DNA of 61,163 nucleotides, from NCBI GenBank assembly GCA_010093995.1, contig ML992511.1, positions 1 through 61,163 on the forward strand. Reading direction: 5' to 3'. The notes below the pieces were generated by a model that had not been told where the DNA came from, did not search any database, and saw only the letters and a program-made list of their open reading frames with translations. Both the position numbers and the translations under genes were made by a program. Shown here in pieces: positions 1 through 21,953 of the stretch. The DNA comes from Elsinoe ampelina. Lineage: Eukaryota. Positions within the stretch are counted from its first letter, which is position 1. Every line of letters begins with the position of its first letter.

Positions 1-119
1 TACTAGAGAAGATAGAGAACTAGGTAAACGTCGGGCTAGGTCACGTAATAACCCTAGTAGTTTAATTAGTCCTAGCGTCTCTACGCTTTAGCTGTTCTAC
101 TAGTTTGTAATAAGCTATT

Positions 120-445
120 ACTCTCTAAGAGATTCGTTACTACTAGAAGATAACTAAACTCCTTATATATAAGCTCCTCTTCTTCTATGTTGTTTATAAC
201 ATTACGTAAGATATTAAGTTAATACTTATAAGTAAAGATTTACGCTTTACGCTAGATACTATTAAGTGTCTCTAGGAAGTAAGTAAGGCAATACTAGTAG
301 AATATTTTAAAGGTATATTAACTATGTATTTAGAATATATAATACCTTATACTAACAACTATAGTAGACTATAATCTTAACGCTATCTATGCTAAGCGTT
401 ATACTATTATATAGAAAGACTCTTAGCTTACTAGGAAATATTATA
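120..445 (+). pseudogene. RIP-inactivated histone H3-like gene (histone fold) with one intron (313-367)
   Basis: Frame from 120 reads TL*EIRYY*KITKLLIYKLLFFYVVYNIT*DIKLILISKDLRFTLDTIKCL*EVSKAILVEYFK, then GT..ACTAAC..AG, then DYNLNAIYAKRYTII*KDS*LTRK. This aligns to H3 [49 protein letters not shown].QLAR, with the stops explicable by C->T/G->A changes. Confidence 0.88.
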
Positions 446-746
446 ATAAGTACTACCTACTTACTTTCTCTAATTAGTAAGACCTCTTCTCTATAATACT
501 ATAAGAATAGACTATAAGAAATAGATAGGTGTATTTTTACATAGACTAGACTATTAAATTTTCTTTCTATAGACTTATTATAATACTAAAGTATAGTATA
601 GTAACTATAGTCGCCTTAAAGCCTAACTAAGGCGTAGTACTATAACGTAGTATAATACTAGGATTTAACTCTAGTACTAATTCGGTGTAGTGCTATTATA
701 GTATAGTATAGCGCTATTATAGTGTAGTACTATTCTTACTTAACTA

Positions 747-799
747 CGGTGTAGTACTAGTACTAGTATAGCTCGGCGTAGTACTAGTACTAGTGCTAA
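747..799 (+). repeat. Two-copy 27-bp tandem repeat inside the RIP block
   Basis: cggtgtagtactagtactagtatagct followed by cggcgtagtactagtactagtgcta; related units at about 683-735. Confidence 0.6.
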
Positions 800-2066
800 T
801 ATAGTAGGGTACAGAGCTAGTGCTATTTAGTTTAGCACCGAGTGCCGACCTACTAAGAATAGCTCTATACTAGCACTAGAGTTAGCCTTTAGCCGCCCTA
901 ACCTCGCTCTAACAGTTATACTAAGATTAAGGTACTAGAGAGATAGCTAGTAATAGTAATAGCTAGTAATATGCTCTACCTCTTACTATGCTACTTTAGC
1001 TAGATATCTATATACTTCTTACTAATAGGCGCCTACCTATATCTCCTCTATACTATATACTTATTATAAGCTAACTTATTAATATAAATAATTCTATTAA
1101 CTAGCTAAAGCATATACCTTCGAGTCTAATTTGCCCTAAGTATTATATCTCTTTTAGCCACTACCTTCTTAGCTACCTTTCAAGACTACTACTAGCACTA
1201 GATTATATACTAGATTATACTTAAGTATATCTAGTAATTATATATCTCTCTTAAGAAGGCTTAAACTTTGTTAAGATAAGTAGTAGAGATATTATTTAGG
1301 TAAGCTATTACTTCCTTAGATAGGTTAGTATAGAAAGAGCTTAGCTATAAAGGACTTATATCTTCTAAGAAAGAGGTAAAAGTATAAGAGTATAGTATAT
1401 AAGCTTTAATAGAAGAATAAGAAGTACTAAAGAACTTAAGGGATAGTCGAATTTAGCGGATTATAGCTCTAGCTACCTTAGTAGTAGCATAAATAGCATA
1501 ATTAGTATACTCTTTAGTAAGTAAGAACTATATGTCTACTAGTTTTAATTTAGCTATCTAATAATTAACTATAACAGTAATAACCTAATTAGAGTAGTAT
1601 AGCGACTATTATACCTTTTTTTAGCTTCAATTTATCGATATTCTCTATGGACTTCTAGCTAGCCAAATTTAATAACGAGAGGTCGACGCGGAGTACAACA
1701 CGCCAAGCCCGGGGTGGCTCGGTTGAACTCAAAACGACTGTATTGTGGACGCGATATGTGGCCACGCAAAGCCCAAATACATGCAGGCCGTCAGGCATCA
1801 GCCTGATCTAGCAGTGTCGCCACGCAAATATGATAGTTGTCGTGTGCTCGCCTATCAAGATGGCACCAATCTCGAAGAATACCGCCTCGGAGACTTGTCT
1901 CCACCAACGGAGACAACCAGATAGTTAGCTCCACACTTTCACAGCTTGACATCCACATGGTCCGGCTGTATCGTACGATATGTCACTGAGGTCTTGAAGC
2001 GCTAGTATGAGCAAAAGCCCTCGGGTTGCCTAACAGGAGGTGGAACCATGCTGCCAAAGACTCTTA

Positions 2067-3242
2067 TTAGGGACTCTTCGATGGCCGTCTCCACTTGCCA
2101 TCGCCGGTCGCGCTCCATCCCTGGGCTGCAACAGCCAGGAAGCCTTCTTCTAATATCCGACGTATCGACTCGACAGCGTAGTCACCAGTGCTAAATTCCA
2201 CCAAGTTTGCCACCTCTCCAGCACTCAGTAAGTGTCGACAAAGCATCTGATATATCTGCTCCATCTCTCTCCAACAATCCGCCATGTCCGCTTTTCCGAC
2301 CACACTTGAATCATCGAGTACGCTCATGTTTGGACAAGGTGAGAAATGGAAATGCAGATGCTTGTAATGCGTCAACGACAATACATGCAGCTCGTCAACG
2401 TGCGAGCTGAACGGGAACAAGCAATGTAAGCGCATTGACTCTAGGTGCTCACTTCGTGGTAGGATTAAGCCTTGAAGGATCGTAGGGGGCTGACGGTGGA
2501 AGTACTCATAGATGCCGTAGGCCTGCAGCATGGAACCTTCCATTAGCTGTAGCTCTTTCCAAGGCCGGGCATTGAAGAGGTACTCCGTATCCCAGGCGGC
2601 ATTCTTCGGGTTCTCTGGTGCTTTCTTGAGGTAAGGACGATCGGGAGATTGGGACAGCTCGAGCATTTGCGTGCTCATGTCCTTAAAGGCCCATTCATCG
2701 CTCATGTTGGGAATCGTTGTGATGAGGTACCCTAGAATACTTACTGGCGCCACTATGGCAAGACGAGTCGGATCGACAGCCTCGAAAATGCGTCGCCAGA
2801 AACCAAACATGGTAATGATGTCGGTGGAGTGGCGGGCTGGATTCCTCAAGGCCTGGGAATTGGAGACTAGCAATTCGTCGATCTCGATGGCCAGACTATC
2901 GATCCTTATTGGTCCTTCACTTTGGTTCTCAGAACGGTGTGGAAGTTGTGTGAGGCTCTCGGCAGCATCGTTGATTGCAAGCCGGAAGCGGGTAGAGGTT
3001 GAGTAGTTTCCTGACACCCCTTCGCCCATGTAGAGGACCAAATGTGAAAAGAGATGTGGCTTTGCTATCACGCGCCACTGCTTGTTGAGTGAAGACAAAG
3101 ACTTCAGCGTGCCGTACTTTAGGCCTGTAGCTTTTCTTGGTGATAAAGGCAGTTGTGGTATTCGCATGTGGTTTGTTTCCGGGTCCATGTGAGCGACATG
3201 CTGGGCAATGACAAGCTTGATCTCGGTCGGGAGATCATCCAT
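2067..3242 (-). CDS. Putative F-box domain protein (391 aa)
   Basis: N-terminal LPTEIKLVIAQHV...LKSLSSLNKQWRVIAKPHLF fits the fungal F-box pattern; single long ORF. Confidence 0.7.
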   Translation of the reverse strand: MDDLPTEIKLVIAQHVAHMDPETNHMRIPQLPLSPRKATGLKYGTLKSLSSLNKQWRVIAKPHLFSHLVLYMGEGVSGNYSTSTRFRLAINDAAESLTQLPHRSENQSEGPIRIDSLAIEIDELLVSNSQALRNPARHSTDIITMFGFWRRIFEAVDPTRLAIVAPVSILGYLITTIPNMSDEWAFKDMSTQMLELSQSPDRPYLKKAPENPKNAAWDTEYLFNARPWKELQLMEGSMLQAYGIYEYFHRQPPTILQGLILPRSEHLESMRLHCLFPFSSHVDELHVLSLTHYKHLHFHFSPCPNMSVLDDSSVVGKADMADCWREMEQIYQMLCRHLLSAGEVANLVEFSTGDYAVESIRRILEEGFLAVAAQGWSATGDGKWRRPSKSP

Positions 3243-3501
3243 ATTTGCGGTCTATCGAGCTTCTTCTGAACTTCGATGTTAACATAGGTTCAACATTATC
3301 CGTCTCGTGCGTGCATTGCTTCCAGAACCACCCGAAATACACGTGAGAGATGCCTCATCGTGCCCCTCCCAAAAAGGCAAGATCAGCCGCCGCGAAAAGC
3401 TTCCCACTCCAGCAAGCTAAAAATTATCTTCAAGCTGCCATCACCACCGATTGCCATTCCCACACCATACAACCCACCTCTCACACTCCTAAACCACCAC
3501 A

Positions 3502-4239
3502 ATGGCCAAAGACAAATCCGAAAAGAAGGAAAAGAAGGAGAAGAAGTCCTCCAAGCTCGCCGACGACGGCGTCAAGAAGGACAAGAAAGACAAGAAAGAA
3601 AAGCGCAAATCTCTCGAGGCAGCGACAGCGACACTCAATGCGATCGAAGACGCCGCTCCAGGCGCAGTAGCAGTTGACGCAGACGGCGACATCATCGTCG
3701 ACGTAGAAGGGACGACGAAATTGGACCTCCCGACCGCAGCGCTGGTGCCGTTCGCGAACCCGCTCGCCGACGAGAAGAACGGGAAGAAGGTGCTCAAGAC
3801 AGTGAAGAAAGGTGGGTCCCACACGCGTGACACCTACCGAAAGGAACAGCGTACTGACATGTCCCCAGCCGCCAAAGCCAAATGCCTCAAGCGCGGCGTC
3901 AAAGAAGTCGTCAAAGCAGTCCGCAAAACCGCCCCGGGCCAGCCATCGACAATGAAGGATCTCCCGCCCGGAATCGTCGTTCTCGCGGCCGACATCTCGC
4001 CCATGGACGTCATCTCGCACATCCCTGTGCTCTGCGAAGACCACAATATCCCGTACGTCTTCCTGACGAGCAGAGCCGAGTTGGGCGCGGCGGGGAGCAC
4101 GAAGAGGCCGACGAGCGTGGTGATGGTCACGCCGAAGCAAGGCGGGGCGAAGAAGGTGGAGGAGGACGAGGAGTGGAAGGAGGCGTATGGGGAGTTCAAC
4201 AAGCTGGTGAATAAGTTGGGGCAGTATGTCAAGGTGTAG
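3502..4239 (+). CDS. NHP2: H/ACA snoRNP subunit 2 (L7Ae family); intron 3812-3868
   Basis: LKRGVKEVVKAVRK, VVLAADISPMDVISHIPVLCEDHNIPYVF and LGAAGSTKRPTS motifs; Lys-rich N-terminus; intron GTGGGT..ACTGAC..CAG. Confidence 0.95.
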   Translation: MAKDKSEKKEKKEKKSSKLADDGVKKDKKDKKEKRKSLEAATATLNAIEDAAPGAVAVDADGDIIVDVEGTTKLDLPTAALVPFANPLADEKNGKKVLKTVKKGGSHTRDTYRKEQRTDMSPAAKAKCLKRGVKEVVKAVRKTAPGQPSTMKDLPPGIVVLAADISPMDVISHIPVLCEDHNIPYVFLTSRAELGAAGSTKRPTSVVMVTPKQGGAKKVEEDEEWKEAYGEFNKLVNKLGQYVKV

Positions 4240-4535
4240 AAGGGGGGAGGAGCAGTATTTTTATGCTGGGAAAGGCGGTGATGATGGCGAGGACATTGTG
4301 CACGGCGTTCAGGAGCGGGAACACTTTCGATGCGTGATGTATGGGAAAATCATGCAGTGTGCTATACAGGGTCAAGCTACCTAGGGTATTTCCAGAGATC
4401 CAGGGGGGAGGTCTCAAAATGCACAAGACGTTGTCAAATGTTCGACGAGGGAAAAAACGCTGCAGAATGGGAAAGTGACGGTGAGGGCCGAAATCCACCG
4501 CGTACTGCCTCTCCAGACTAAGATCAGTGCTCACT

Positions 4536-5684
4536 TCACGCTCCGGCTGTCGCGTGGCCATTGACGGGCTCCTCCACTCGCATCTTCTCCAGAAGACCTC
4601 GAATGCCATCTGCTTTATCCCGCCCGTTCTCCATGTCGTCCAAAAGCGCCAGCGCTCGTTTCGTAAGTCCTCGTAGAATCTTTCGTGTGTATGCGAAGCT
4701 TCCTGTCCTCTCCATGTACGCCATGGCGTACCGCTTCACCTCGTCGTCTTTGGTCTTTTGCTTCAGGATGTTGATGAGCACAAGATTCTCGGGCTCAGTT
4801 CGTATGCTGTGAATGACTGGGAAACTGAATTTGCCTTCTGTGAGGTCTTCGCACAAACCCTTGTTCGCCGTATACGTGTCGTCACTCAAGTTCTTGTAGT
4901 CGTCCAGGATCTGGAATATGAGACCTATGCTGTTGACCAAAGGGACGCAGTCGATGCCGGTTTTGCTTTCCGCCTGCATCAATTTGACGGCTAATCGAAA
5001 AAGTCCACCGGTCTTGTTGCCAACCATTTCCAGATAATCATCTTCGCTTGGGCAGGTCAGGGTATCTCGCCAGAATAGATCCATGCCTTGTCCTCGGTGC
5101 AGGTTCAGCAGCTCCTCTGTGTAGATCTGAATGAGTACGGGATTGTTGAGCTTGAGCAGTTCTTGGAGCGCGACAAAGTACACATAGTTTGCCGAGTTGA
5201 TGGTCTGCGCAGTCCCAAAGATGTTGTGAGCGACCGGCACACCTCGTCGCAGTAGTGAATTATCCTCTACATCGTCTACTAAGAGCGAAGCCGTATGGAG
5301 CATGCCCACCACTTTTGTGATCACCGCAAGTGATTGATCAGGCACTTTGAGCCAGACATTGAATGAAGCGATCAATTGCGATCTGATATCCTTGCCCGGG
5401 TGTCCCAACATGTAGTCATAGGGTCCCAGTAGAATCTTGTCCTTTTCCCGTGACCAGTCCGCGGGTTGTTGCAGAATCTCGTTCGCTTGGGACGTATCTG
5501 TAGGTGATAGAGAACTTCCGATTGTACCGCTGGCTCTTTTCGTCTTCCTTTGCGAGATCCACTCGTCCTCTGTTATCGCCGGTCGTGAGATGCGCTGTGT
5601 CGAGTTCGCTAGGTTTGCGCCGTTCACAGCATTGTGGGAGCTCGTTCGAGGTGGTATCGTGCCAGGCATTGCGTCGGAAGCCAT
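4536..5684 (-). CDS. BTS1: Geranylgeranyl pyrophosphate synthase (BTS1/al-3 type)
   Basis: [29 protein letters not shown] (FARM), [24 protein letters not shown] (SARM), [11 protein letters not shown]. Confidence 0.95.
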
Positions 5685-6696
5685 CGTAGAAGAAGGAGGG
5701 GGCGTGCCCAGGCAATTAAGGTCGAGTGGTCGGCCTTCAGCGGATGCGCCTTCGGGGAATGGACATCGACTTGAAACTTTGTGGTTACGCCTAATTTGGG
5801 ATGGAAGCTCAAGGCAGAAGTCACAAAACGAAGTTCATGACTGCGCCTCTTGACCGGACTTGCCTTGACGTAGAGACTATGCTACGTGCGAAAGGGACAG
5901 CTGTGGCCTAGAGGTCGTTGGGGAAGGAGGATCGGAGCTTGCAGGTTGGTGGGCTGTATTCGGTTCGTCTTGTACTTCAGCCCCAGATCAAATACCTCAT
6001 GCCATGTGATAAAAAGACGGTTGAAACTTGGCACACGCTTGTCCATGGCCAATCGATGCCCGGTTGCGGGCGGAATACGGCGAACGGGGCTTTGAGAGGT
6101 CCGAAGTAAATAAAAAGTGTCGCTCTATTGATACTTGATGTCGTAGCTTGGTCCATTGTTGTTACCATGCATGAGCACTGTGGCAGAGGGGATTACTGCT
6201 ACATGCTGATCTGTTTGTGTGTTTACTCGATGCCCAAAAGTGGAGCGGTGTAGGGCAGCTGCATCTCGCAGCTCAATTGCTCGACAGAATGGCCTCGTGA
6301 TCCAGATATGACAGCACACAGCCTACAAGACTTGTGTATGCTTTGCCTATTCCCCAGACATTTGTCCAAAATAGCACAATGCCTGAGACGGTGTATGCAA
6401 CTAGTTGATAGTATCGTTGTCAAAACAGCCACCAGGGACCAAATGGTTCACGACAATGGCTGCAGCAGTTCTTCGGGGATCGTCGGCTTTGGACAGTTGC
6501 CCGGGATACGGCCCCGTTGAAGATCTCCCAAGCTCGCAAAACGTCGAGAACAATCACTCGAACTCCGACTCTAACCTTGTCCGTCGACTGCTCTTCATTC
6601 ATCTTGTTCCCTTTTGTCTTCAAGGATATGGGTATTGGCGTTCGATTCATTCAATTATGAGGATAGTCCACGGCATCCAATTCAACCGCAAGCATC

Positions 6697-7613
6697 ATGG
6701 AATCACTCCTATCCCTGTCGTTTGACAATATTTCATCACGAGACATCAATAAGATCAGAAAAGGCTTGAGGCAGATTGAAGGGCTATTAGCACACATATG
6801 TCTGGCGGAAGATAAAAAGAGCAAGGCAAAGAAGCAGAAGCATACATCGACGGCGGGCAGAGCAGCGACACCAGGATGCTCGTTGAGTGATGTTGCGGCG
6901 GATCCAGCATTTCGGGAGTTTTTCAGATTACAGGAAGGTTTTGAGTGCAATGGTGAGCAGACTTCAAAAAGCTCGAGGGTTACCAGCTAATTCACCTGTA
7001 GTTGCGTCACGGCTAGTCGGATGCTTGGAGAGGTTACTAGGGATGCCAAACTGTAAGCCATGACTCTAAGGAACTTCTGTATGCATATGCTCACATCCAG
7101 TCAGATGACAACATAAATGCTGTCATTGTCTCAGCCCTGGATCTCTTACAAGGTGTCCTCTTGCTACATCCACCATCAAGAAGCTTATTTCGACAAGAGA
7201 TCCACATGAACGTCATTCTGGACCTTCTCGACGCTGGGAACCCTCCAGCTGTTCAATCTCAGGCGCTTCTGGTGCTCGTGTCTGCCTTGCTGGCCAATCC
7301 GGACAACACTCGGACGTTTGAGAGTCTCGACGGTCTCATGACTGTAGCCAGCTTGTTCAAGTCCAAGATAACAACCAAGGAGGTCAAGCTGAAGGCAGTC
7401 GAGTTTTTCTATTTCTATCTGTTGCCCGAGTCAGCACCAAAGTCATCCAAGGGCGGCAAATCTGCTGGTTCGTCGCTCGGCAGCAGCGATGGCAGAGTCC
7501 CGAAGACAAAGTCTACGGACGAGAAGCAGCTGATGTTGGGCAAGTACATGAACAACGTAGCCGAGCTGGTCGGGGATCTACAGGAGGCGGCGCCGTTCGA
7601 AATCTCATGTTGA
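6697..7613 (+). CDS. cdc14: Cell division control protein 14, SIN component (S. pombe Cdc14-like, not the phosphatase); introns 6953-7001 and 7053-7104
   Basis: MESLLSLSFDNISS..KIRKGLRQIEGLLAHIC, DPAFREFFRLQEGFECNV, LDLLQGVLLLHPPSR, NTRTFE, EFFYFYL; spliced frames join. Confidence 0.85.
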
Positions 7614-8395
7614 TGGGTTCGGCATCTGTAGGGTTTACTATCATTGGAGTTTGGCATAGCTGGCATGGGTGTGGAGTTCAGCCGCAGGACTTGGGATACC
7701 ACTTTTGATAACGGCCGGTTACGGAGTCGCGGGCATGCCCCAATTTGGGTGGGCCTGGAACGGATCGGGCTAGCTTTCTTCTATGTCACAATCAGGCAAT
7801 GTACGATTCCAGAAGCAAATAAAGCATTGTCTGCCGCCACACGACTTGACCTCGGGTAAGAGAGGTAGGGACGTGAGACCAAGTGACCTTGGACTCAAGT
7901 CGTGGGAGCTGATGAAACACTGCGACAAAGATGAAACAAATGCACTGCCTTGATCGCAACGACGACGCTCGTCACGAGCTCTCGTGCGCTAGAAAGCAAG
8001 ATGAGTCTCTGTGCTGGTCTCCAAAGTGCTTGCAGATGGTCCAAGCGCCTCTGTAAGCGCCGTGCCACAGAGCGTCGACGTCCTCTCAGCTTCCATTTCT
8101 TCACTTCCCAGCTGCACGTCTACGCGCTTTGTTGACACCCGTCGTCCATGACAATGGCATGGCGCGTAGAGGCAAGCCAATGCATCATGGGTCACCGCCT
8201 GATCGTAGAAGGTTTGTACCGCCATTTGTACCTTCGCGCCGCGTTCACTCGTTTCATCTCTGTTGTTTCAATTCTTCAAGTACATTTGCAAGTAGAGTCC
8301 GCTGGTCGGATCATTTGTGTCTTTTCGCCGTCGATATACATTCAATGTGTCTGCACATGCTTCTATGAGGAGTCGTCACCGGAAAGGATGAATTA

Positions 8396-10624
8396 ATGCA
8401 CGGACGAGGTGAGCAATCTGCCCGAGCAAGCTCTCACGCCACTGACACCTTGTCAGAGCAGACCACCAGTATGACTGCCCCTTTTGCCTCACGACGAGCT
8501 CTGCGGATACCAGTCCGGCAGACACAGAATTGCAAGAGAGATACGACCTCATTACCCAAACGACTCGATGACGTTGTCCCGACCTGTGCTGAACCTTGCC
8601 TCACATCATACATCAGTCAATACTGGGTACCTAGTGCATGCTCGAACTCGACCGACTTTGGATGCTTGTGCAGTCGGTACAGCAAATCTGGCTACACTGT
8701 GGGTGAGATAGCACTGGCATGCGTCTCAAGCAGCTGTCCACAGGCGGCGTCGGCTCAGGCTTCTCAACTGTACAACGTTTGTGAAAGGCAATCTGGCGCG
8801 GTATCAGCGACGCATACAGTCCTGACCGTGCTTGTATCGGCCACTCCTACATCAGCCACCACAACGACCAATTCCGGTCAACAGAGCGGTCCTACCACAT
8901 CACAATCTACTTCATCCCGACCGTCCACTTTTATCACCGCGACATCCAGTCCATCGATTACAGGAGTCATTCCAATCGTCACAAGCATTGCTCAACCACC
9001 GACAACACCAAGCCAGGTCTCAAGCAATCCGCAATCTGGAAGTGAACTCAGCTCTGGCCAGGCCATCGGGGTCACAGTTGGGGCATTCGGCGGCATCGGA
9101 CTGGCTGTGGGTCTGATCTTCTGCTGCATTTGCGCAAGGAGGAGAAAGTCTCAGAAAGTGAACGAGAAGAAGCACAAGAAGAGAGAGTCGTTGGACTTTG
9201 CCTGTGCAGAGACACCTCGCTTCTCACCTTTCCAGATGCGGTACGGAGATCTGCGAGGGCCGCTGGGTGGATCACACCAGCAGCGAGTCGAACTTGGAGA
9301 CCAGGGACAGCGAGGAAGCAACCGAATCACTCAATGGCTGGTACCCGGTGCAACAACGAGGACGAGGCACAGCAGGTCACTATCTCCAGCGAGCATCAAT
9401 AGTGACCGGACGGTGTCACAACTTTTGCCTGACAAGCCGACTACAGTTGCCCAAGCAGGTCCGCACTACAAGGGACAGAATGCACGACCATTCAGCGCTG
9501 AAACGCAAGGAACGGTCTTTGAAGAAGATCGATTACCGTGGAGTCCCGGTCTGCAGAAACCTGCGCCGATACAATTGAACTTCCGCTTCGGTCATAGAGC
9601 AGATCAGGCTGATATGCCTCATCAAATTATCCCAGCATCGACCAATTCTGGATCGGTATTTCCGGCTTTCCCAAAGGTCCCTCGACGGCAGTCAACTCGG
9701 AGTTCGAGGAGCATGAATTTGTCATTGACGATACCCAAACAGTCGTCGCTTGAGCAGTCTACTTCAAGAGAGGCGGACACGGCCAAGGAAGTCATAAGTC
9801 CCGGACAGAGTTCGGTACAGAACTACCAGACACCAATGACAACCAATCCTAACCAGTCTCTCTCAGCTGGCAGTGGCATGAGCTATCTACCATCCTACTA
9901 CACTTCGAAGGACAGTAGAACTCCGATTGTCCCTTTGAAGAGTCCTGCCAGACCACAAATACCACAACAGCAATTCAGAAGCCCTCCGCCTCAGAAACCA
10001 CTGCCCAGAGCTCCAGTGCCGAGACGACAACTCTCGAAAGCATCGGAGACGTCATTCGAGTCTGTTGATCCCAATGAAGTGACGCCGGATGAAGAGCTGG
10101 ATCGGCGCCTCAATGAAGGAGCGTCACCAATATCCGGGTTGAGGTATCCTAAGATACCACGTTCAGCGAATCAAGTGGTGCCTCGCTCGCCGACAGCGTC
10201 ACCACTGAAGAGAACACCGCCGAACCCACCGCATGGACTAGCAAGATCCGAGACAATCGCATCGAAGCGAAGAGGCCAAGAAGCCGCGACCGATATGCAG
10301 CGCCGACTGGGCCTGGCAGAGGCATTCTCCCCACAAGCGCCGGCTTCCACGCAAAGGAACAATCGAGACAGCTTCCTGTCCTACGAGACACCTGCAAGGA
10401 AGCCGATGCAAAGACCTACGAACCAGAACGCATATGTGACGCCACCACGGACGTCAAGCCAAACATACAAGGGTCACCGTCCGAGGTTGTCAGTCTTTCC
10501 AAACACAACGCCCACTCCGCCGAGGGGCAAGGAGATGATGCAGACGCCCTCACCTGCACGAGGGCCAAGACTGACGCCCACCAAGCGTGGAGACGAGCTG
10601 TTCCTGGCAGTGACACCAGCGTGA
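8396..10624 (+). CDS. CFEM-domain single-pass membrane protein with long disordered tail; probable in-frame intron 8409-8456; start uncertain
   Basis: Eight-Cys CFEM pattern PTCAEPCL..C..TDFGCLCS..ACVSSSC..C, Ser/Thr-rich linker, TM segment AIGVTVGAFGGIGLAVGLIFCCI followed by RRRK. Confidence 0.8.
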   Translation: MHGRGEQSARASSHATDTLSEQTTSMTAPFASRRALRIPVRQTQNCKRDTTSLPKRLDDVVPTCAEPCLTSYISQYWVPSACSNSTDFGCLCSRYSKSGYTVGEIALACVSSSCPQAASAQASQLYNVCERQSGAVSATHTVLTVLVSATPTSATTTTNSGQQSGPTTSQSTSSRPSTFITATSSPSITGVIPIVTSIAQPPTTPSQVSSNPQSGSELSSGQAIGVTVGAFGGIGLAVGLIFCCICARRRKSQKVNEKKHKKRESLDFACAETPRFSPFQMRYGDLRGPLGGSHQQRVELGDQGQRGSNRITQWLVPGATTRTRHSRSLSPASINSDRTVSQLLPDKPTTVAQAGPHYKGQNARPFSAETQGTVFEEDRLPWSPGLQKPAPIQLNFRFGHRADQADMPHQIIPASTNSGSVFPAFPKVPRRQSTRSSRSMNLSLTIPKQSSLEQSTSREADTAKEVISPGQSSVQNYQTPMTTNPNQSLSAGSGMSYLPSYYTSKDSRTPIVPLKSPARPQIPQQQFRSPPPQKPLPRAPVPRRQLSKASETSFESVDPNEVTPDEELDRRLNEGASPISGLRYPKIPRSANQVVPRSPTASPLKRTPPNPPHGLARSETIASKRRGQEAATDMQRRLGLAEAFSPQAPASTQRNNRDSFLSYETPARKPMQRPTNQNAYVTPPRTSSQTYKGHRPRLSVFPNTTPTPPRGKEMMQTPSPARGPRLTPTKRGDELFLAVTPA

Positions 10625-11655
10625 AGGGGAAACATCACGATAAACAACCTGAAGCGCTGAATGGCGGCACGCGTGCGAGACGGAAATTTATTTCTCTGGC
10701 GCAACGAGAGTTTAGCCGCCGGCGTCGGCTTGGCTGCGGTTGCTGGAAGAATTGTCGGCATATGAGAGGCCACCGGGAAATGCGGATGAATAGGCGAGAC
10801 ATGCATGTGTACGATTGTAGTCTACTTTCTATACGAGAGCAACGATAGATACTATCGAAGCGGATGAATTACAAGGTGCGCAATTGTAAATAATCAAAAT
10901 TTTACTTGATGTCCTGACCGAGATGGTGCACGAAGGAGGGGCCGAGTTGGCAGTCCGGGATGCCCCGCCATGCCCCTCCACAAGAGCTCCCTCTCCACTC
11001 GCAAAAGTTTGGGTCCCTTTTCCGTAACTCGAAATGTGTGGCTTGTTGCAATAGCTATTACGACACGACAACTCGATTGAGAGATCTGGTAGTTACAGGC
11101 GTAGCTAATAACTACCAGAACTATCTATGAGCCTGATTTGAGGCTTACAACTACAGTGTTGACGGAGTTATAGGTATAGCAAGTCAATACTCAGCCGAGA
11201 TAGTGTTAGAGAGGACTCAAACTCATTTGCGAGTGGGGAGGTCTCAGCATCTCCCCGGACCTGTCGTCCACGGGTGTCGTCCACTGGTGCCATGCAATCA
11301 AAAGCCAGCTCTTAATCAGCGTCGCCAGTATTGCATAATGGGATTTGGAAGCCATGCAGATACCGATACAAGTGTGTCAACCATGGCCTGAGACAGTCAG
11401 TAACCAAAAAACGCATTTCCGACGAGTATTTAGCCCTCTTGCCGCGGAACTGCAGTAGATAGCTCTCCCAGATCCAATCCCGGTGGGCGAAAGAGAGGAG
11501 GCTCTTCTCACTTTTGCACCCCCGGACGTCACCTCTCAGTCAGCAAAAGCTCAACCAAATTCCGACACCGACTCGCATCTTGGTGTCAAACACCGTCACA
11601 AATTCTTTTTCCTTCTCCATCTCCCACATCCTCAATTGATCAACACATTGCAATC

Positions 11656-14097
11656 ATGGGTTATACCGAGCTTGATCAGAAGTGTATCAACACAATCCGT
11701 ATCCTCGCCGTACGTCGACCCCTCCATCTGTGCCCCACCACCACTTTTTTTTCCAATGTCCGGATGAAGCGGCGGTGGAAACACTGCTCCTCGAAACAGC
11801 TGCTAACATATTTCTATACAGGTCGATGCCACCTTCAAGGCAAACTCCGGCCACCCCGGTGCGCCCATGGGCATGGCTCCGGTCTCCCACGTTCTCTTCA
11901 ACAAGTTCATGAAGTTCAACCCCAAGAACCCCAGCTGGGTCAACAGAGATCGCTTCGTTCTTTCGTAAGATCTCTCCATTCTCCCCGGCATATTTCGTGC
12001 CCAGAGTCAATGAGCGATTGCAAGAGTCGGAGACGTCGCATAAGATGCTTGCATCGGTTGATGGACATGGACTGACAGCAATTTCCAGAAATGGCCACGG
12101 ATGCATGCTTCAATACGCCCTGCTCCACCTCTTCGGCTACGCTCTCAGCATTGATGACCTGAAGAACTTCCGTGTAAGTGGTGTCCCTTTCGCTCGAGAA
12201 ACAGAACTGACGAGCGTCTAGCAAGTAGACAGCATCACCCCAGGTCACCCTGAAGCTCACGACACACCTGGCATTGAGGTCACCACTGGCCCTCTCGGCC
12301 AAGGTTTCTCCAATGCCGTCGGTCTTGCCATTGCTCAAGCTCACACCGCCGCTGTCTTCAACAAGCCCGGCTTTGAGCTGATCAACAACTACACATACAC
12401 CTTTTTCGGTGATGGCTGCGCCATGGAGGGTATTGCCTCTGAGGCTGCTTCCATGGCTGGTCACTTGCAGCTTGGTAATCTGATTGCCATCTACGACGAC
12501 AACCACATTTCCATCGGTGAGCTGCTTGAGTGTAATCATTCCGCGCGGAGCTGACGAGCATGCAGATGGTGACACCAAGTGCGCCTTCACCGAGGACGTC
12601 CTCAAGCGATTTGAGGCTTACGGCTGGCACACCGAGTGGGTCAAGGATGGCGACAACGACCTCGAGGCCATTGAGAAGGCCATCAAAAAGTGCCAGGAAG
12701 TCAAGGACAAGCCATCGGTCATCAAGCTCACAACCACCATCGGTTTCGGCTCCAAGCTCGCCGGTACTGGCGGTGTCCACGGTAACCCATTGAAGGAGGA
12801 TGACTGCAAGGGTGTCAAGTCCAAGTTCGGCTTCGACCCCGAGAAGTCCTTCGATGTCCCCCAGGAGGTTTACGACGCCTATGGCAAGACTGCCTCCAAC
12901 GGTGCGGCTGCTGAGATCGAGTGGAACCAGCTGTTCGAGAAGTACGGAAAGGAGCACAAGGATCTTTACAACGACCTCAAGCGCCGTCTTACAGGCCAGC
13001 TTCCAGAGGGCTGGCAATCGAAGCTCCCCACCTATAAGGCCACCGACAAGGCCGTTGCTTCCCGTAAGCTGTCCGAGTCTGTCCTTCAAGCAATCTTCGA
13101 CGCCGTCCCTGAGCTCATCTCCGGATCTGCCGATCTGACTGGCTCCAACAACACCCGGTGGAAGGAGGCTGTTGACTTTCAGCCACCCAGCACAGGCATT
13201 GGCGAGTACTCTGGCCGCTACATGCGCTACGGTGTGCGCGAACACGCCATGGCTGCTGCCATGAACGGTATGGCCGCGTACGGTACCATCATCCCAGCCG
13301 GTGGTACTTTCCTCAACTTCGTCTCATACGCCGCCGGTGCCGTCCGTCTCTCTGCCCTCTCACACCACCGTGTCATCTACGTCGCGACTCACGACTCCAT
13401 CGGCCTCGGTGAGGACGGCCCCACCCACCAGCCTATCGAGACTCTTGCCCACTTCCGTGCCCTGCCCAACTGCATGGTATGGCGTCCCGCCGACGGCAAC
13501 GAGACCAGCGCTGCCTACTACGTCGCCCTCACATCAAAGTCGACCCCTTCGATCCTCGCTCTCACTCGTCAGAACCTGCCCCAGCTCGAGGGCAGCACTC
13601 TCGAGAACGGTATCAAGGGTGGTTACGTTGCTCTCGAGGCAAAGGATGCCCAAGTCACGATTGTGTCCACCGGCTCCGAGGTCTCCATCTCGCTCGAGGC
13701 CGTCAAGGTCCTCAAGGAGAAGCACAACATTGTCGGTCGCGTTGTCTCCATGCCTTGCGTCGAGGTCTTCGATGCCCAAGACAAGGATTACAGACTCAGC
13801 GTCATCCCAGACGGTATCCCAACCATGAGCTTCGAGGTCATGTCCACTCTCGGATGGGAGAAGTACAGCCACGAGCAATTCGGTCTCAACAGATTCGGTG
13901 CCTCGGGTCCATACAAGGAGGTCTACGCCGTAAGTAATTCACAAAATGTGAGACAAGCTGCGAAACTGATACTTTTACAGAAATTCCACTTCACCCCCGA
14001 AGGTGTCGCCGAGAGGGCCGCAAAGACGGTCGAGTTCTACAAGGACGTCAAGCCACTCAGGTCGCCGCTCAACAGGGCTTTCCTCAACTTGATCTAA
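11656..14097 (+). CDS. TKL1: Transketolase; introns 11710-11821, 11965-12088, 12174-12221, 12517-12565, 13930-13980
   Basis: [72 protein letters not shown]; all splice junctions keep frame. Confidence 0.98.
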
Positions 14098-14621
14098 GTG
14101 AGAGTATGGGTACACTGTGCTGGTGATGTCGATGGACGTAGATATTAGCAATGAAACGACTTTCCAAATACCTTTTTTTTTATTGCAGGCTAGCACAGTG
14201 AGATTGGGGCGTCGGGTTTGAGAGGATCCTCAGCTATGGTCTGGTGAGAAGCAATCCAATGGCTACCATGTCTACGTTGAGTGTGTGTGACGGCCCTCGA
14301 AACTCGATAGCATACCATTCACTGCCACCATGTCCGACACGGTATCTGAGCAGAAATCTGGCGCTTCGAGAGGACAAAGTTCGTCATCTCTGCGAGCATA
14401 CAAGAGATTCAAGTGCATTTCCGACGCGACAAGTGGGCAGATGATGCGCGTACCAGGCCATCAGTACAGCGTGTATCAGATTGCGGCAGTCACACCCTGC
14501 AAGTGGAATAGTAAATCATGTTTGATTCACGAGTTCACCCGTCGGTGCTATCCCTCTAACCCCAAGAATGCACATTCCCTTGTCCAGCGCTATGCTTCTC
14601 CCCCCGGTTCCCCTGTCCCAC

Positions 14622-16178
14622 TCACACCACCAACCCCAACACCACCCCCACCACCCCCACCGCCACACTCCCCTTCACCCTCGTCCCCACCCCTCTCGTC
14701 CCAGGCAACGCACCACTCTCCCCCTCCCCCCTGCCCAATGCCGTATTACTAGGCAACGCAGTCGGTACCACCGCCGCGGTACTCGGCGCCAGGGCGATCG
14801 TCACCCCTCGGGCAAGACGCATACTCCTCGGCCCTCCCTCGGACTCGCTCCTCGTATCGACGAGCGGGATATTGGCCTGCACCAGCTCGAGCGCGGATAA
14901 ATGGTGGCCCAGTTTCTGGCCGATGGTGAGGTTGGAGAAGTAGCCCTCTTCCGACAGGGCGGTGACGGTGTCCGGGGTGGTGTAGAAGTGTTGGCTGCAG
15001 ATGGAGCCGTTGATGCCGAGGGAGGGAATGGTGGTTGGGGATTGCGGGGCGGGGGAGTTGGGGGCGACGGACGGGATGAAGCCTGAGCAGGCTATTCCGG
15101 CGCCTGTGGCGGAGGCGGAGAGGAGGGGGAGGGCAAAGGGGGCCAGGAAGGGCGCGACGATGGAGGCTTTGCTTATCCAGCGCCCGAGGAAGCCTTTGAA
15201 GAGAAGTTGGTCTTGGTTACAGCCGCCTTCTGCGTCGCGTTCGAGGCCGGATTGGCGGGGTTGGAGTTCGCAGGCTTGTTCGAAGATGATGCCTGTGGAG
15301 TTGGGGAACGGGCTGAAGAAGGTGCTGTTGGCTTGGGCGAGGAGGTAGAGGGCTCGGTCCCCCCAGATGGAGGAGCCGTTGGTGGCGTTGTAGAGGTAGG
15401 CGGCGCCGCCGAGGTAGAGGGCGGAATTGTACGTCCATTGGGTATGGTCGAGCTCGGCGCAGTCTAGTGTGTCGTCGCTGCCGTCGTAGATGGCAAAGTT
15501 CTGGCGGTCGATGAGACCGATGGAGGACGACCAGTCCCAGATGCGTGTGGCCCAATCGTAGTAAGTGCTGTTGCCTGTGTAGCGGGCGAGCCGAGCAGCG
15601 ATCTGGAAGAAGCCACCGTTGGAGACGGAGTTTTTGTAGTTGTATCCTCTGTTCTCGGGATACACTTGCCACTTGAGACCACCAGAGCAGCTGCTGGTGT
15701 CCCATCGGGCGACCATGCCATCGAACACACGTTGTGATAGCTGTAGCCATGATGTGAAAGGCAGTGTGCTGGAGTTGGGGAACGGCAGACCATATTCCAA
15801 AGCTGCTAGGGCACTAAAACACCAGAATGCTATATCGTCGTTTCCCATGCTCTGACGGTATTGCTGTGGCATGAAATCGCCCTGGAAGCCAGCCTGTGCT
15901 ACCAATGACTGAATCGTGGATGGGTTATACGTTACGTCGTTTGTGTATGCCCAGTAATCCACCAGCGCACCCCATGTCGCTCCGGCATGCCACCAATACG
16001 TAGGTGGTGGAAAGATGCCTACGGCGTATGGCGGAATGCCCGATGCATTGCCTGCATAGAGAGCGAGGACATTGTAGGCCAAAGTCGACGACGAGCCGCG
16101 CAGAGACTGTGCTGATCTGGTATCGATATCGAGTCCGGCGACCAAGGGCAATGCCACTAAGGATATTGATAATCGCAT
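14622..16178 (-). CDS. GH76 alpha-1,6-mannanase/transglycosylase (Dfg5/Dcw1 family), secreted, probably GPI-anchored
   Basis: Signal peptide MRLSISLVALPLVAG from ATG 16178; YWWHAGATWG, catalytic GNDDIAFW, CSGGLKWQ, YKNSVSNGGFFQIAARLARYTGN; hydrophobic C-terminus. Confidence 0.92.
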   Translation of the reverse strand: MRLSISLVALPLVAGLDIDTRSAQSLRGSSSTLAYNVLALYAGNASGIPPYAVGIFPPPTYWWHAGATWGALVDYWAYTNDVTYNPSTIQSLVAQAGFQGDFMPQQYRQSMGNDDIAFWCFSALAALEYGLPFPNSSTLPFTSWLQLSQRVFDGMVARWDTSSCSGGLKWQVYPENRGYNYKNSVSNGGFFQIAARLARYTGNSTYYDWATRIWDWSSSIGLIDRQNFAIYDGSDDTLDCAELDHTQWTYNSALYLGGAAYLYNATNGSSIWGDRALYLLAQANSTFFSPFPNSTGIIFEQACELQPRQSGLERDAEGGCNQDQLLFKGFLGRWISKASIVAPFLAPFALPLLSASATGAGIACSGFIPSVAPNSPAPQSPTTIPSLGINGSICSQHFYTTPDTVTALSEEGYFSNLTIGQKLGHHLSALELVQANIPLVDTRSESEGGPRSMRLARGVTIALAPSTAAVVPTALPSNTALGRGEGESGALPGTRGVGTRVKGSVAVGVVGVVLGLVV

Positions 16179-16704
16179 AATGGGGATTTTAGGTGGGAGT
16201 GTAACCAAGCGGCAGGCCCGGATGATGTTATATTCCAAAGATCCTCGTACCGGAAGCACTGCAGGGAAGTTACGAGCGACAACAGTCAACGGTAAAAGAG
16301 ATACGAAATCTTGTTCTAGAAAGATGCATACAAGGCAAGCTCGCTTGCCTACTCACTTGGCGAATCTACCGTCTCACGGGAGGGATCAGATGTCCATGTC
16401 TTGTGATAATTCTCATTGGATGGTGTCCAAGATCTGATGTGCAGAGGTGCAGGTGGAGGGGCGGAAGATCGCCACCGTGGACCTTTGAGGCCAAAAAGTC
16501 TTTTCCTTCGCTGCTTGGCTTCTGGGCAACCGTTCAACTTGCGGCTCTGCTCTCTCGGTTACGGCTTCTCCACAGTTTAGCGTGTTTTGATGTTTACGGC
16601 TAGATTTCATCACGCCCGCATTCAATTGCTTTTGCTTGAGGACATTGACACGCGATATTGCAATTGTATTCACTATTTGCTCACCGTTACAAGCCACGGA
16701 CATA

Positions 16705-19061
16705 ATGTCCGAAGCCGACGGTCTTAACATGTCAGACAGCAAATTCGAGCCATCCTGGTCAGACTCAGACGGTACAGCATTCCTTCCCACCAATCTTCCG
16801 GTGAAGCGCATTGCTCGCGCCTGGGAAAGAAAGCCGTCTTCACCCTACAGTCAAAAACCTGGAGTGAAGAAAGTATGGCGACGCGTCCGAATGCCCGTAT
16901 TTAATGCGCCAGTCACAAGTGGCGACTATCCTCGGTCAATTACTATCCCGCCGCAAGATCAGCACGTCACGATCGAATCTCCAAAGAAGGCGGTCAAAAA
17001 GCAATGCCTAGACACAGCCTACGGCCGCGATTGGAAGACGACAGAGTGGGATCCACGAGGCATACACATGCGTATGTTTGATAGCAACCCAACGAAAACA
17101 GTCTCTGACAGTTTGTCTCAGGAAAGAAAGTCTCCCGACCACCCATTGTCCTTAGAAGCGGCGCACGTATCGATCCAAATAGCGATGACGAAGGCATCAC
17201 GGATGAAGGCGACGACGATGATCAAGCGAGCGAGGCAGCCTCGGAAGGCGCGGTAGGGGAAGATGCGGATGGCGAATGGGAAGATGTAGAGTCGGAAGAC
17301 GACTCGGAAGAGCATAGACAAACTGGCGACCGAGAATTAGCGAATCACAATTCAAGCGCTGAAGCTGATAAGCAACTCATCGCGGAACAAGAACAACTGG
17401 TGCAAGCGTCAAGAGAGGTTGTAGCAAACGAGGATCACCACACGTATCAGCAAATAAGCGCGACAGAAGCGAAGGAGGAGCAACACATCGACAGCCCGGT
17501 CTCTGGTGTTCCTACAACATCTCCTACAAAACGATCGCCAGCGAGGCGATCACCAAAGAAGACTTCGCCGATCAAGCATCTTGCTGAAATACCGACATTG
17601 GCTATTCCATCGCCATTCCAACGGCCGACCTCTGCGCCCCCGGAGGAGACCATCACAAGCGAGAACTGGTACAGACCACGCATATCAGACGATACAGCGA
17701 TTCTTCACGCATTCCTCAGCCGCGCCGCGGCGAACAAGAAGCCGCTGGCCAAGCGCGAATCTCTTACCAACAGGCGCGATTCTGGCGCAATCCGCCACGC
17801 CCTGGCATCTCCTGCGAAACCTGACGTCCTGACAGAACTGGACGCAAACAGTCCCTCTCCCCACAAGAGTGCGCGTGTCGAGATTGAGGAGAAGGGAAAA
17901 GCAGCCTCAGACGAGAAGTCGCCGTCTTCGAGGAAGGCCGAAGAGCTGACCGAAGAAACGAAACCGAAGAGAAGAAGCGGAAGGAGCAGAGCGCGACCTG
18001 CACTACTTCTTGACCAGATGACAGCAGACGAGCCCGTGAAGGGCCCAAACAAGATTACGATCAGGGGCCCGACCGAGCAAGTCAACCTCAAGAAGAATGA
18101 GGTTGCCGAGCTTGCAGCCCAGACGCGTTCCAATACGCGCAAGAACAAGGGCCAGAGCATCATGCCCATAGCGCGACTCAGTAAGCTAGCTGATGAAGCC
18201 GTGGAGGTGCTCAGCGAAGACATGGAATCAAAGCCCAACCAGGAGGGTAGGAACGTCCATTGGGATGAGACGCTCGCATACTTCAGCAAATCCCCCGAGC
18301 AGTCGCTTGAGGCAGATCCCGAGGCTGGCGAAGTACCGGACACCGTCCAGGAGACCTCAGGCAAAGAAGCAGCCGCGACTTCACCACCAAAGTCCCGCTC
18401 GAAGCGCGCCAAGGTAGCCAGTCCAAAGAAAGCTGCACCTGAACCAGATCAAGAACCTGTCGTGTCCACTCCTGCCCCGAAGCCGGCTCCCTCCAAACGC
18501 CGCTCTCGCATAGCTACCCCAGCCAAAGGGCTCCTCAGCAAGTCACTCCTGCCAGAAGACGTGGTGCCCCATACGAACGAGCCAGAACCGACAAAGCCTG
18601 CTCCAACTACTGCTCCAGTGTCAAGGAAACGCGCCCTCCCAACTCCAAAGCGCAGCGCGCACGCTGTCGTCTCCGCGCTCAAACAATGCGCCACCGACTC
18701 AGCCCCTACCGCTGCGCCCGCCCAACCGGGACTTGGTAGTCGCCCGCCGCTCTCGCCGCGCAAGGCAGCTCCGACCACCGCCTCCTCCATTCCTAGTCTC
18801 GGCACATTCGCTCCTAGGATGAATAGCGAGATACCCAAGCTGAACTTCGACGAGGCCGTCGGGACAAATTTCAAGGCTAAGAACAAGACCAGTCAGTCGG
18901 GAGCAGAGGAGGAACAGGTTCCTGGTCTGGCAAGTCCGGCGAAGAGGAGGAGAGGCGTGCTCGGTCTCAGGAGGCAGGTGAGGGAGACGAAGGAGGAGAG
19001 GGAGGAGACGCTGCCTGGGTTGATGAGTCCGGCGAAGAAGAGGACGAGGAGTGCGCTTTGA
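16705..19061 (+). CDS. Uncharacterised, largely disordered Ser/Pro/Lys-rich protein; intron 17072-17121
   Basis: Two track ORFs join in frame across GTATGT..CTGAC..CAG; acidic patch, many SP/TP sites, C-terminal basic clusters. Confidence 0.75.
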
Positions 19062-19457
19062 TGATGTAGATCAGATGATGTGACGAGGCGGGGAGAGGTC
19101 GACGCTGGGATATGGTGGATGTGGCATAGTATGGTGGAACGAACAGTTGTTGGGGATGCACAGATACCAATGGCCTGATCGAGCGGACGTTGCTGGTAAA
19201 CAGTGATAGTATGTAGTCTGTACACAATTGTACACCCGGCCGCATCCCGTCTCATGCTCTTGTGGCCGTGACCGACCCATTGCGCCGTGCCAGAAAAACA
19301 CTCCCATTCCATGTCAGCCTCCCTGACTTCCCTATCCTTGCCTCACCCCCCTCATCCCCGCTTCTCCCCATCCCCTCGCGCATCTTCCATCGCATCTTCC
19401 ATCGCATCTCCCTCCCTCCCCTGCCTTGACCCCAACCCCCTGCTCATCCACAACCAA

Positions 19458-20990
19458 TCAACCCCCCCTCGGCGCCACGGACAAAATCACCGCCAAACTC
19501 GCCACGATCAACGCCCCGGCCACAGCGGACACGAGCAACACACTCCCCCTACTAGCCGGGAACTTGCCGCGGATGACATAGTGCTGGCTCTCAAAGTACC
19601 TATGGAACCCCACCAGCAAGATCAAAATCGCCACGACGAGGAAGGTAGCGCCCAAAGGTTTGCCGACGTGGCTGAGGCGCTGGAGGTCAGGGCTCGACGC
19701 GAGGGCGGTGAGGAATTCGCTCTGGTAGACCCTTCTGCTGCCGTTGGGTGGCAACACGCCGGCGCCGCTCGAGACGACGACGGGGGGAGAGGAGGATGAG
19801 GAGACGCTCGTGCTGTTCGCCGACTCGTTTTCTTGTAACGTGGTGTTCAGGCGGAACAGCTGCGTCACGGCGATGCCGATGGAGGCGAAACTGAGACTGG
19901 TGCGGAGCCAGGCGAGAAAGGTGCGTTCGAGGGCCAAGTGGTCGCGGGCCACGCTGCCTTTGTTTTCGAGCTCGATGGAGCCGTATTTCTCTAGGAGGGC
20001 GCGCCAACGGGAGTCTTCTTGCTGGGAGTGCGAGGTGGAGGAGGAGGGGGAGTGGGCGTCGCGGTCGCGAGAGGAGGAGGTGGTGGTGGGAGGGCTGGAT
20101 TTGCGCCGGAGAGGGGCGCCGGGGTCGGGAGGGGCTTCGTAGCCTGCTGCGTGAGGGCTGATCGAGTCGGTGGTGCGGGACGCTGAGGTGCCGTAGGTGT
20201 TGTTGGCGGCTTTGGCGGATGCGCGTCGCAGGATGGCGGTGTTTTCGTCGGCGCTGGATTCGGGTTCTTCGGTGAGGTGATGCGTGTCGGCGATCGAGCC
20301 GCGTGGTGAGGCTTTGCGGGCCATGAGGTAAGCGCTGTAGGAGGTGTTTGGCGACACGCCGTCCTCGCCTAGACCGGGGCGAGTGTACGAGGTTGGATGG
20401 AATGAGACGCTTCTTTGTCGTTCGGGCTCTGTGGGTTTTTTTGCAAGTGTAGGTGAGGTCGAGCCGCTTCCACTTTGTGATTTGGACTTGCTCTTGAGCT
20501 TGGTGCTTGAGAACGAACCTGATCGCGAGCGGCTGGACTTTGTGGATCTATTGGACTTGATCGACGGCGAAGGAGATGGCAGGCGACGACTGGGTTCTAT
20601 ACTAGCGACAGTGGTGATGACGCTGAACTGCTGTTGCGGTACTGCAGCATCAATCTGAGCTTGTTGGATCGGTGGAGACTGCTTTGGCTGCGATTTCGAT
20701 ACTTGTGAAGGCTCGCGGATCGCATGGCCAGATTCGATTGCCTGCTCTACCTCGTCGTCTTCGGACGCTGCGCCGGCCCTCTCTCGATTGGTATCGGTCC
20801 TCCAGTCTTTGAAGCTTGTCGACCTCTTGAAAGCTTCAGCTGTGGGCTGGGCGGGCTTGCTCAGGGTAGCTTGAGTGCGCTCGGCCGGAGCCGAGGGACC
20901 AGGTCGGGGAGTGATTAGACTGCCTTCTTCCGAGTCTGAACCAGCAGCAGACTGGGATTGAGAAGTTGAGGTGTCATCTCCGGTGGACAT
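19458..20990 (-). CDS. DUF202 (YidH/Vtc1-like) membrane protein with long disordered N-terminus; start could be 20990 or 21017
   Basis: [40 protein letters not shown] and two further TM segments around [17 protein letters not shown]. Confidence 0.88.
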
Positions 20991-21953
20991 GGAAACTGGA
21001 GAACATGGTAAAGGCATATTGCTCCGGGCTCGGCGCAGGCTAGGGTTCTGCTGCGGTTCCGGGCGAGAGGCACAGATGTCGCAATTTCTGGGCGGCAAAC
21101 GCGATGGCAATCGACCTCAGAATGAGCCAATGACCCAAATTTTCGGGTGTGTGATCGCGGATCAGGTACCTTTAGGGACTTTTCGATGCTCGACGGGACC
21201 GAAAAGAGGCCAAAGAGATTGATGATAGAACGGCAAGAAAGATGCGGAATCGAAGAGCTCGACCGACCCAATTGCGCGTGGGTCGCAGGATAACCCTATG
21301 TGTCGAAACGATACCACGAGTAGCGATTCAAGAGGTCCGTGTTGGCCTCGATCCTCATTTCGAAGCAGACGGACGGTGCGAGAGGAAGAATGCTAATTTT
21401 CTGATAATGCTCAGAGGTGACGGTGAAGAGGACGCGCAACAAGGGAAAGACGTGCGGGCGGTTGGATCCGGCTTTATTAACTGAACTATCTGTGCGGAGA
21501 AAACTCCACGAGGGAGGGGGGCTCAAGCCTCAATGCACAAGGGGATGAGGTGCATCAACGATAACCTAATCTCTAGCTGCAGGACAGCTTTGATCATCAA
21601 GCATCCTCCACAGAGCTAAATGTCTTGTGAGAATTGATTTCAAATCGAGCTTCGTTTCCGATGGAGATGCTCATGACTTTTTCTTCGTGCCTGTCGATAC
21701 AGGTGGTATCTATGCTGCATACTGATGCATGGAACCCACACGTCCTCCCTGATATGCGCCAAACGCTAATACAGCACGATTCCGATCCGCCATCCTATCA
21801 CCAGCCTGTTGTCAACGCGGCCTGCCCCTGCGCATTCCCCCATCCATTGCTGATATTCTCGACCCAGGTTGTATGCTCCATGACTGGAGGCGGGAGCGCA
21901 ACGTGGTCAGATGACTGCTGTGCAACATGGACGTCTTCAGTCGGCATGGACTG

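Follow-up and report, generated by a model that had tools for sequence, protein, structure and literature searches.

The first 1.7 kb of the window analyzed here (the whole stretch of DNA, 61,163 nucleotides long) raises the question of what a histone gene is doing in a ruined, AT-rich repeat: whether it is the decayed gene of a host chromosome or the passenger of something that moved, and, if the latter, what carried it. An earlier note, made from the letters alone, had recognized the remains of a divergent histone H3 in this block and suggested a multi-copy, transposon-carried histone variant in a possibly different lineage from those on record. Our literature search found fungal transposon-borne H3-like genes only in Manning et al. 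(2013) and Dhillon et al. (2019), and none for Elsinoe or the Myriangiales. In Pyrenophora tritici-repentis, the H3-like gene H3L is reported to be the cargo of a 5.6-kb hAT transposon and of its 2.3-kb derivative; it was transduplicated by the hAT element, its 26 copies are nearly identical, intact, transcribed and little affected by RIP, and it matches neither H3 nor CenH3 (Manning et al. 2013, PMC3538342). Hosts of hAT-borne H3-like genes named in the second study are Pseudocercospora fijiensis, P. musae, P. eumusae, Cercospora zeae-maydis, Sphaerulina musiva and S. populicola. These Mycosphaerellaceae genes are described as intronless and are interpreted as retrocopies, or captured transcripts, of the host H3 within a 9.5-kb hAT element; their many copies are confined to AT-rich blocks, and RIP with a CA>TA bias has inactivated all of them (Dhillon et al. 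2019, PMC6710886).

Structure of the H3-like gene

The span first proposed for the gene, 120 to 445, proves to be correctly placed but too short. The gene runs from 2 to 477 (+) as three exons separated by two 55-nt introns with GT..AG ends, and thus has an additional intron (60-114) and an additional exon for the N-terminal tail, which is itself cut off at the left edge of the window. Its reading passes through all three forward frames (the tail in frame 2 at 2-59, the body in frame 3 at 115-312, and the C-terminal part in frame 1 at 368-477) and is broken by six internal stop codons, at 126, 144, 207, 273, 412 and 424, every one of them TAA or TAG.

Exon 1 (2-59, +), truncated by the window edge, encodes the end of the N-terminal tail. 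In frame 2 it closes with ...NNPS and the first base of a Thr codon, and it aligns with the K(P/A)GT junction of H3L proteins; the loose ends of nine contigs from public run X1 read GGT (Gly) at the position of the window's AGT. Intron 1 (60-114, +) interrupts the Thr45-equivalent codon in phase 1, with a +1 frame shift across it and a donor that possibly lies at 57 instead. The metagenome relatives P0131 and P0020 show a 16-residue read-through insertion exactly at this point.

Exon 2 (115-312, +) covers alphaN, alpha1, a long loop 1 (213-236) and most of alpha2, and contains the stops at 126, 144, 207 and 273. The motifs quoted in the earlier note are found on the forward strand, EIRYY*K at 129-149, DLRF at 237-248 and L*EVSKAILVEYF at 270-308; the motif NLNAIYAKRYTI follows at 373-408 (+), in the next frame relative to these. 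Between them lies the one intron that had been claimed, and the claim holds: intron 2 (313-367, +) begins with GT, ends with AG, has a TACTAAC sequence at 350-356, 12 nt before its end, and interrupts the Asp106-equivalent codon in phase 1. Its length of 55 nt accounts for the +1 frame shift observed across 313-367. In the relatives P0022, P0131 and P0020, a read-through insertion starting with Gly (G+GT) is found at the same point. Exon 3 (368-477, +) supplies the end of alpha2, loop 2, alpha3 and a family-specific C-terminal tail, carries the stops at 412 and 424, and ends in a terminal TAG at 475-477.

A separate observation concerns P0267, a JGI metagenome fragment that is otherwise a canonical-looking H3 and yet has a read-through insertion at the H3L intron 2 place. 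The position of intron 2 may therefore be older than H3L in some fungal H3 genes.

Resemblance to histone H3

Even with X substituted at its stops, the translation of exon 2 alone (P0001) bears out the histone fold, matching the Pfam family Histone (PF00125) with an E value of 2.4e-4 and 21.8 bits, a score below the gathering score of 26.4. Compared with the PDB, exon 2 matches 158 distinct sequences at E <= 1, of which the best 60 are all histone H3 (top E value 6.3e-6); the alignment to these places a 5-residue insertion in loop 1. A tblastn search of the 61-kb window with three intact H3L proteins detects this locus only, through both exons, at E values from 2.6e-9 to 4.8e-12, and the spliced translation scores 82.5 to 89.1 bits on HMMs built for H3L and for canonical H3. 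A search of the ESM Atlas returned generic histone clusters only, and a search for a second H3-like copy in the left AT-rich block gave none, only short chance matches. As a matter of sequence comparison, the resemblance to histone H3 exceeds chance even with an X at every stop.

Placement in the Pyrenophora-type H3L family

To which kind of H3 the gene belongs is less easily read from overall similarity. Raw identity does not discriminate: the window gene is 38-44% identical to H3L members, and against canonical H3 its identity reaches 48% at most, with 42% as the median. Searching 1.84 billion representatives with exon 2 yields 19 matches at E <= 0.001, mostly concatenated canonical H3, but the leads P0019 and P0020 have a straight read-through of an insertion exactly at the window's intron 2. 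P0022, the fullest member of the P0019 cluster, has the window's odd C-terminus in common. A whole-protein search with P0022 retrieves 7,706 proteins, most of them canonical H3 that is either tandem or wrongly named, and only the region-restricted search is informative. Confined to the C-terminal region, the search returns 209 candidates, 155 of them at E <= 0.001, and the best named matches after the query's own cluster are from Paraphoma chrysanthemicola, Parastagonospora nodorum, Massariosphaeria phaeospora, Pyrenophora tritici-repentis and P. teres, all of them Pleosporales; Pyrenochaeta and Stemphylium, also Pleosporales, are lower-ranking named matches. Canonical H3 also dominated a metagenome scan with P0022 (of 607 stretches, 539 are relatives; 76 loci were kept at 53-63% identity and left unused), and the H3L family's own contigs were not among the loci it retrieved.

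The P. tritici-repentis H3L proteins among these matches are P0382 and P0265 (e.g. EDU39997.1). Their cluster has 19 members with accessions from the Pt-1C-BFP reference, and the member P0382 occurs on 85 contigs. Three traits of H3L are absent or rare in canonical H3. Cys110 is replaced by Asn, the KD(S) position is occupied by Ser, and the canonical ending gives way to a Tyr-Tyr tail that extends for about 10 further residues. All three C-terminal traits (the Asn, the Ser, and the Tyr-Tyr tail with its extension) are present in the window gene. In a tblastn search with P0382, residues 125-157 match window positions 367-468 at 56% identity, the match reaching residue 157 of 158; the same kind of search with the canonical H3 P0297 did not detect exon 3.

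Nine diagnostic columns separate 11 H3L from 60 canonical sequences. Most family rows in them (7-10 of 9-10) have the family residue, and 38-58 of the 60 canonical rows have the canonical one. At these columns the window has the family residue in five and, after reversal of RIP, in a sixth; one is canonical, another is canonical via RIP, and one is neither. The H3L HMM scores the spliced translation at 89.1 bits against 82.5 for the canonical-H3 HMM, a margin of only +6.6 bits; in leave-one-out controls, all 11 family members fall at +14 to +74 and all 12 canonical sequences sampled from the 60 fall at -6.5 to -61. A 28-row tree splits the window and the 11 H3L sequences from 16 of the 60 canonical H3 with support of 100/99, and a 73-row quick tree recovers the same split with an SH-aLRT value of 85; both trees took in H3L and canonical H3, and no CenH3 sequence. 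At about 2 changes per column the window has a very long branch, and its composition is skewed, so its placement in the tree could be partly an artefact of these properties.

The principal alternative at this level is an independent event, in which a host H3 was captured and amplified within the Elsinoe lineage and the residues shared with H3L arose by convergence or reflect a long-branch artefact. The equal raw identities are compatible with it, as are the long branch and biased composition, and the canonical-like P0267 also has an insertion at the intron 2 position; because of that read-through insertion, introns alone are no proof of H3L ancestry. We nevertheless judge an independent capture improbable, since the C-terminal signature is common to H3L and rare or absent in canonical H3, both the HMM comparison and the tree favor H3L, and exon 3 is found by H3L queries and missed by the canonical H3 query. 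It would appear that the window gene belongs to the Pyrenophora-type H3L family, a placement that the C-terminal signature, the HMMs and the tree make well supported, if not beyond doubt. The kinship with published transposon-borne H3-like genes that the earlier note had proposed is thus borne out, and specifically for the Pyrenophora type.

Some further members of the family deserve mention. Intact H3L-type genes in which both intron positions are read open occur on JGI metagenome contigs (P0019, P0022-P0027, P0020 and P0131), the P0019 cluster having seven members and a longest contig of 29.5 kb. Identical or near-identical H3L accessions are annotated five times in Paraphoma chrysanthemicola (P0262/P0381) and three times in Stemphylium lycopersici (P0283), which hints that Pyrenophora is not the only genus with repeat-borne copies. 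The Stemphylium H3L model was also suspected of having a BED-finger-like N-terminus, but the idea was rejected: Pfam shows the histone fold only, and the N-terminus is unmatched in the window.

RIP and copy number

The gene lies in an AT-rich, multi-copy, RIP-mutated repeat block at 1-1700, which extends beyond the left edge of the window and whose right edge is approximate (about 1680-1702), set by the change in composition and by contigs of run X5 that depart left of 1702. Over 1-1680, the GC fraction is 0.30, TpA/ApT is 2.11 and (CpA+TpG)/(ApC+GpT) is 0.20, versus 0.53, 0.58 and about 1.23-1.24, respectively, in the adjoining 1681-5000. The indices thus change sharply at the block's edge, and the normal values in the latter interval mean that no leakage of RIP into the first flanking gene is evident. 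Across the 107 columns aligned to the H3L consensus, 50 are identical and 57 different; C>T and G>A changes alone explain 27 of the differences, the premature stops included, the reverse direction only three, and four of the six internal stops stand where the family consensus has Gln. The dinucleotide indices, this directional bias and the transitions seen among copies (below) agree that the block has been mutated by RIP, as first supposed.

At the other end of the window, a second AT-rich block (59000-61163, -; GC 0.26, TpA/ApT 1.76, (CpA+TpG)/(ApC+GpT) 0.19) is a RIP-degraded Ty1/Copia-type retroelement, with an RVT_2 match at 5.2e-20 when stops are read as X. A comparison of the left block with this right-hand block shows no similarity between them. 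The roughly 57 kb between the two (1681-58900) are gene-dense and of normal composition, with open reading frames whose domains include polyprenyl synthetase, CFEM, GH76, DUF202, DUF676 esterase, SDR, BSD and formin GBD.

Copy number was approached by aligning public contigs on window positions 1-3000. Run X1 (organism A), which contains 0.88 of the words of the stretch, places 922 contigs on 1-1800 at 80-100% likeness, and transitions make up 97 of the 100 places of change that were listed. The summed depth per 100-nt bin over 101-1800 is 5,142-23,820, compared with 227 on the single-copy flank (one contig, 1715-3000). This corresponds to about 40-100 fold over the block and about 40-70 fold over the gene itself (9,227-16,382 in bins 101-500); since summed contig depth is a rough proxy and no copy number, we read the excess only as tens of diverged copies. 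The claim that the element is multi-copy is supported by these contigs.

The first bin (1-100) of X1 stands apart, with a depth of 116,155, which exceeds the rest of the repeat about 10-fold and the single-copy flank about 500-fold. The H3L tail and intron 1 may also belong to another repeat of far greater abundance, or the excess may come from a few contigs of very great depth.

Run X5 (organism C) comes from a relative whose single-copy flank is about 92% identical to the window, with 49 of 604 letters different. In this run the depth over the H3L part (bins 101-600) is 4,187-23,830 against about 128 on the flank, or 33-186 times, and the rest of the block (bins 601-1800) has 0-2,801, or 0-22 times. 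The high depth over H3L indicates that this related species also has an amplified H3L-bearing repeat, of which the gene is the best-conserved or most widely shared part; in this relative, the gene may occupy a different or more diverged element. Runs X3 (0 contigs) and X10 (one contig, at 2781-3000) give no cover of the repeat and are uninformative as to its absence.

CenH3 and the possibility of a host pseudogene

The earlier note had drawn attention to two features as CenH3-like, and both are accurately described: eight residues lie between "*D" and DLRF in loop 1, as against three in canonical H3, and the residue at the Gln68 position is Phe, not Gln. Their reading as marks of CenH3 finds no support. 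A residue other than Gln at position 68 is a trait of the H3L family, whose consensus there is Ser, and the window's Phe has a simple origin, because its codon TTC is one C>T step from the family's TCC. Loop 1 varies in length within H3L, being canonical in P. tritici-repentis, longer by two residues in P0022 and P0271, and longer by five in the window. The PDB matches listed for the window gene are all H3, as are those of the P. tritici-repentis H3L protein among the best 60 listed. The window gene therefore resembles CenH3 (CENP-A/Cse4) in its lengthened loop 1 and its loss of Gln68, but differs from it in being multi-copy, RIP-mutated and dead, where a CenH3 is characterized as single-copy and essential.

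These two features are also compatible with a single-copy host H3 or CenH3 pseudogene, mutated by RIP leaking from a neighboring repeat, and only one copy of the gene is present within the window. Such a pseudogene is nonetheless extremely improbable. Hundreds of diverged contigs from the same organism fall on the gene, with the X1 depth in its four bins far above that of the flank, and neither the PDB matches nor position 68, with its family-wide substitution, speaks for CenH3. Judged by its letters and those of its relatives, the H3-like gene is not a decayed host H3 or CenH3.

Host lineage and relation to described systems

Among named proteins, the best matches to a GH76 open reading frame in the window come from Elsinoe fawcettii (77% identity) and Sphaceloma murrayae (70%); the next is at 53%. 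These identities place the window in an Elsinoe-like member of the Myriangiales. The survey of Dhillon et al. (2019, PMC6710886) is described as comprising 12 Mycosphaerellaceae genomes and the protein sets of nine further genomes, with no Myriangiales among them, so the suggestion of a different lineage is upheld. As far as their accounts of sampling go, the Myriangiales are outside both published surveys (Manning et al. 2013; Dhillon et al. 2019), and in the main text of the Elsinoe fawcettii genome paper the words "histone" and "hAT" have 0 occurrences.

The window gene shares with P. tritici-repentis H3L its protein lineage, as the C-terminal signature, the HMM preference and the tree indicate, and both genes are multi-copy and, by the published description of the Pyrenophora gene, neither canonical H3 nor CenH3. 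They differ in host order (Pleosporales there, Myriangiales here), in loop 1, which is longer by five residues in the window, and in fate, for the P. tritici-repentis copies are reported to be intact with little RIP, whereas the window copy is destroyed by it. They differ also in that the hAT vehicle reported for Pyrenophora has no counterpart seen within the window. The likeness to the Mycosphaerellaceae genes, as these are described, is of another kind: here too an H3-like gene has been amplified, sits in an AT-rich block, and survives as RIP-inactivated copies. The window copy, however, keeps two introns and the H3L signature, a comparison made with the published description. Where the copies in the account of Dhillon et al. 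(2019) are intronless, the window has two frame-shifting interruptions of 55 nt with GT..AG ends, at positions common to its H3L relatives. The retained introns and the H3L signature together make it a Pyrenophora type of gene with a Pseudocercospora type of fate.

The vehicle

What carried the gene has to be sought in the rest of the repeat. The remainder downstream of H3L (478-1700) is unclassified; its X1 depth is as high as that over the gene, and its X5 depth much lower. It shows no Pfam family at E <= 1 in six frames. Over 1-2003, no transposase domain, TIR or TSD was detectable, the six-frame Pfam search giving the histone match only, and no TIR could be defined at the repeat's right edge near 1680-1702; to the left, the repeat continues beyond the window. 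RIP is able to erase a transposase beyond recognition.

The same H3L family might accordingly have travelled here on something other than a hAT element, such as a DNA transposon of another superfamily, a large cargo-carrying element, or a composite repeat with an H3L fragment as passenger. Consistent with such a vehicle are the lack of a hAT domain in the 1.2 kb downstream of H3L and the far greater abundance of the H3L part over the rest of the block in X5, which could mean that the gene sits in differing contexts. The hAT elements of P. tritici-repentis and the Mycosphaerellaceae are, moreover, reported to be without sequence similarity, so that vehicles do differ between lineages (PMC6710886). 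Set against this, the only H3L family member with a described context is hAT-borne (PMC3538342), and a transposase could have been lost to RIP or could lie in the missing part of the repeat. A vehicle of another type is accordingly somewhat unlikely, though the possibility is a serious one.

We consider it very probable that the locus is one RIP-inactivated copy of a dispersed repeat carrying an intron-bearing H3L gene, in an Elsinoe-like Dothideomycete, and that the gene is of the same lineage as the hAT-borne H3L of P. tritici-repentis. The repeat would be a DNA transposon that multiplied together with its H3L cargo, and, as in Pyrenophora, it would most likely be a hAT element; carriage by hAT is suggested by family membership and copy number. 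Duplication would have made the element a target for RIP during sexual cycles, and RIP would then have destroyed cargo and vehicle alike, leaving an AT-rich, probably heterochromatic relic. The H3L copy in the window would now yield no histone. The further idea of the earlier note, that such cargo may have altered the chromatin of its own element, is speculative and finds no support in these results.

Implications

The locus itself is a dead relic, of practical use as a marker both for a repeat family degraded by RIP and for sexual cycles in the past. Transposon-amplified H3-like genes were already documented in two groups of Dothideomycetes, and the window copy adds a third order, the Myriangiales, by means of a RIP fossil tied to the Pyrenophora H3L lineage and not to the Mycosphaerellaceae retrocopy type. 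Taken with intact, often multi-copy H3L proteins in seven genera of Pleosporales, it suggests a widespread repeat-borne family, the origin and function of which were left open in 2013.

H3L looks like a conserved histone variant lineage, borne by repeats and spread across Dothideomycete orders. Tentatively, and as a reading that may well prove wrong, we suggest that H3L could be an old, intron-bearing H3 variant lineage, and not something that one Pyrenophora species captured recently by accident. It would be conserved at the protein level, live on the mobile repeats of two or more Dothideomycete orders, the Pleosporales and the Myriangiales among them, and occur intact in environmental metagenomes. 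It would be upheld by serving its element, as a transposon-encoded histone, or by horizontal movement of that element between fungi, and RIP-proficient hosts like the present one would hold only its fossils.
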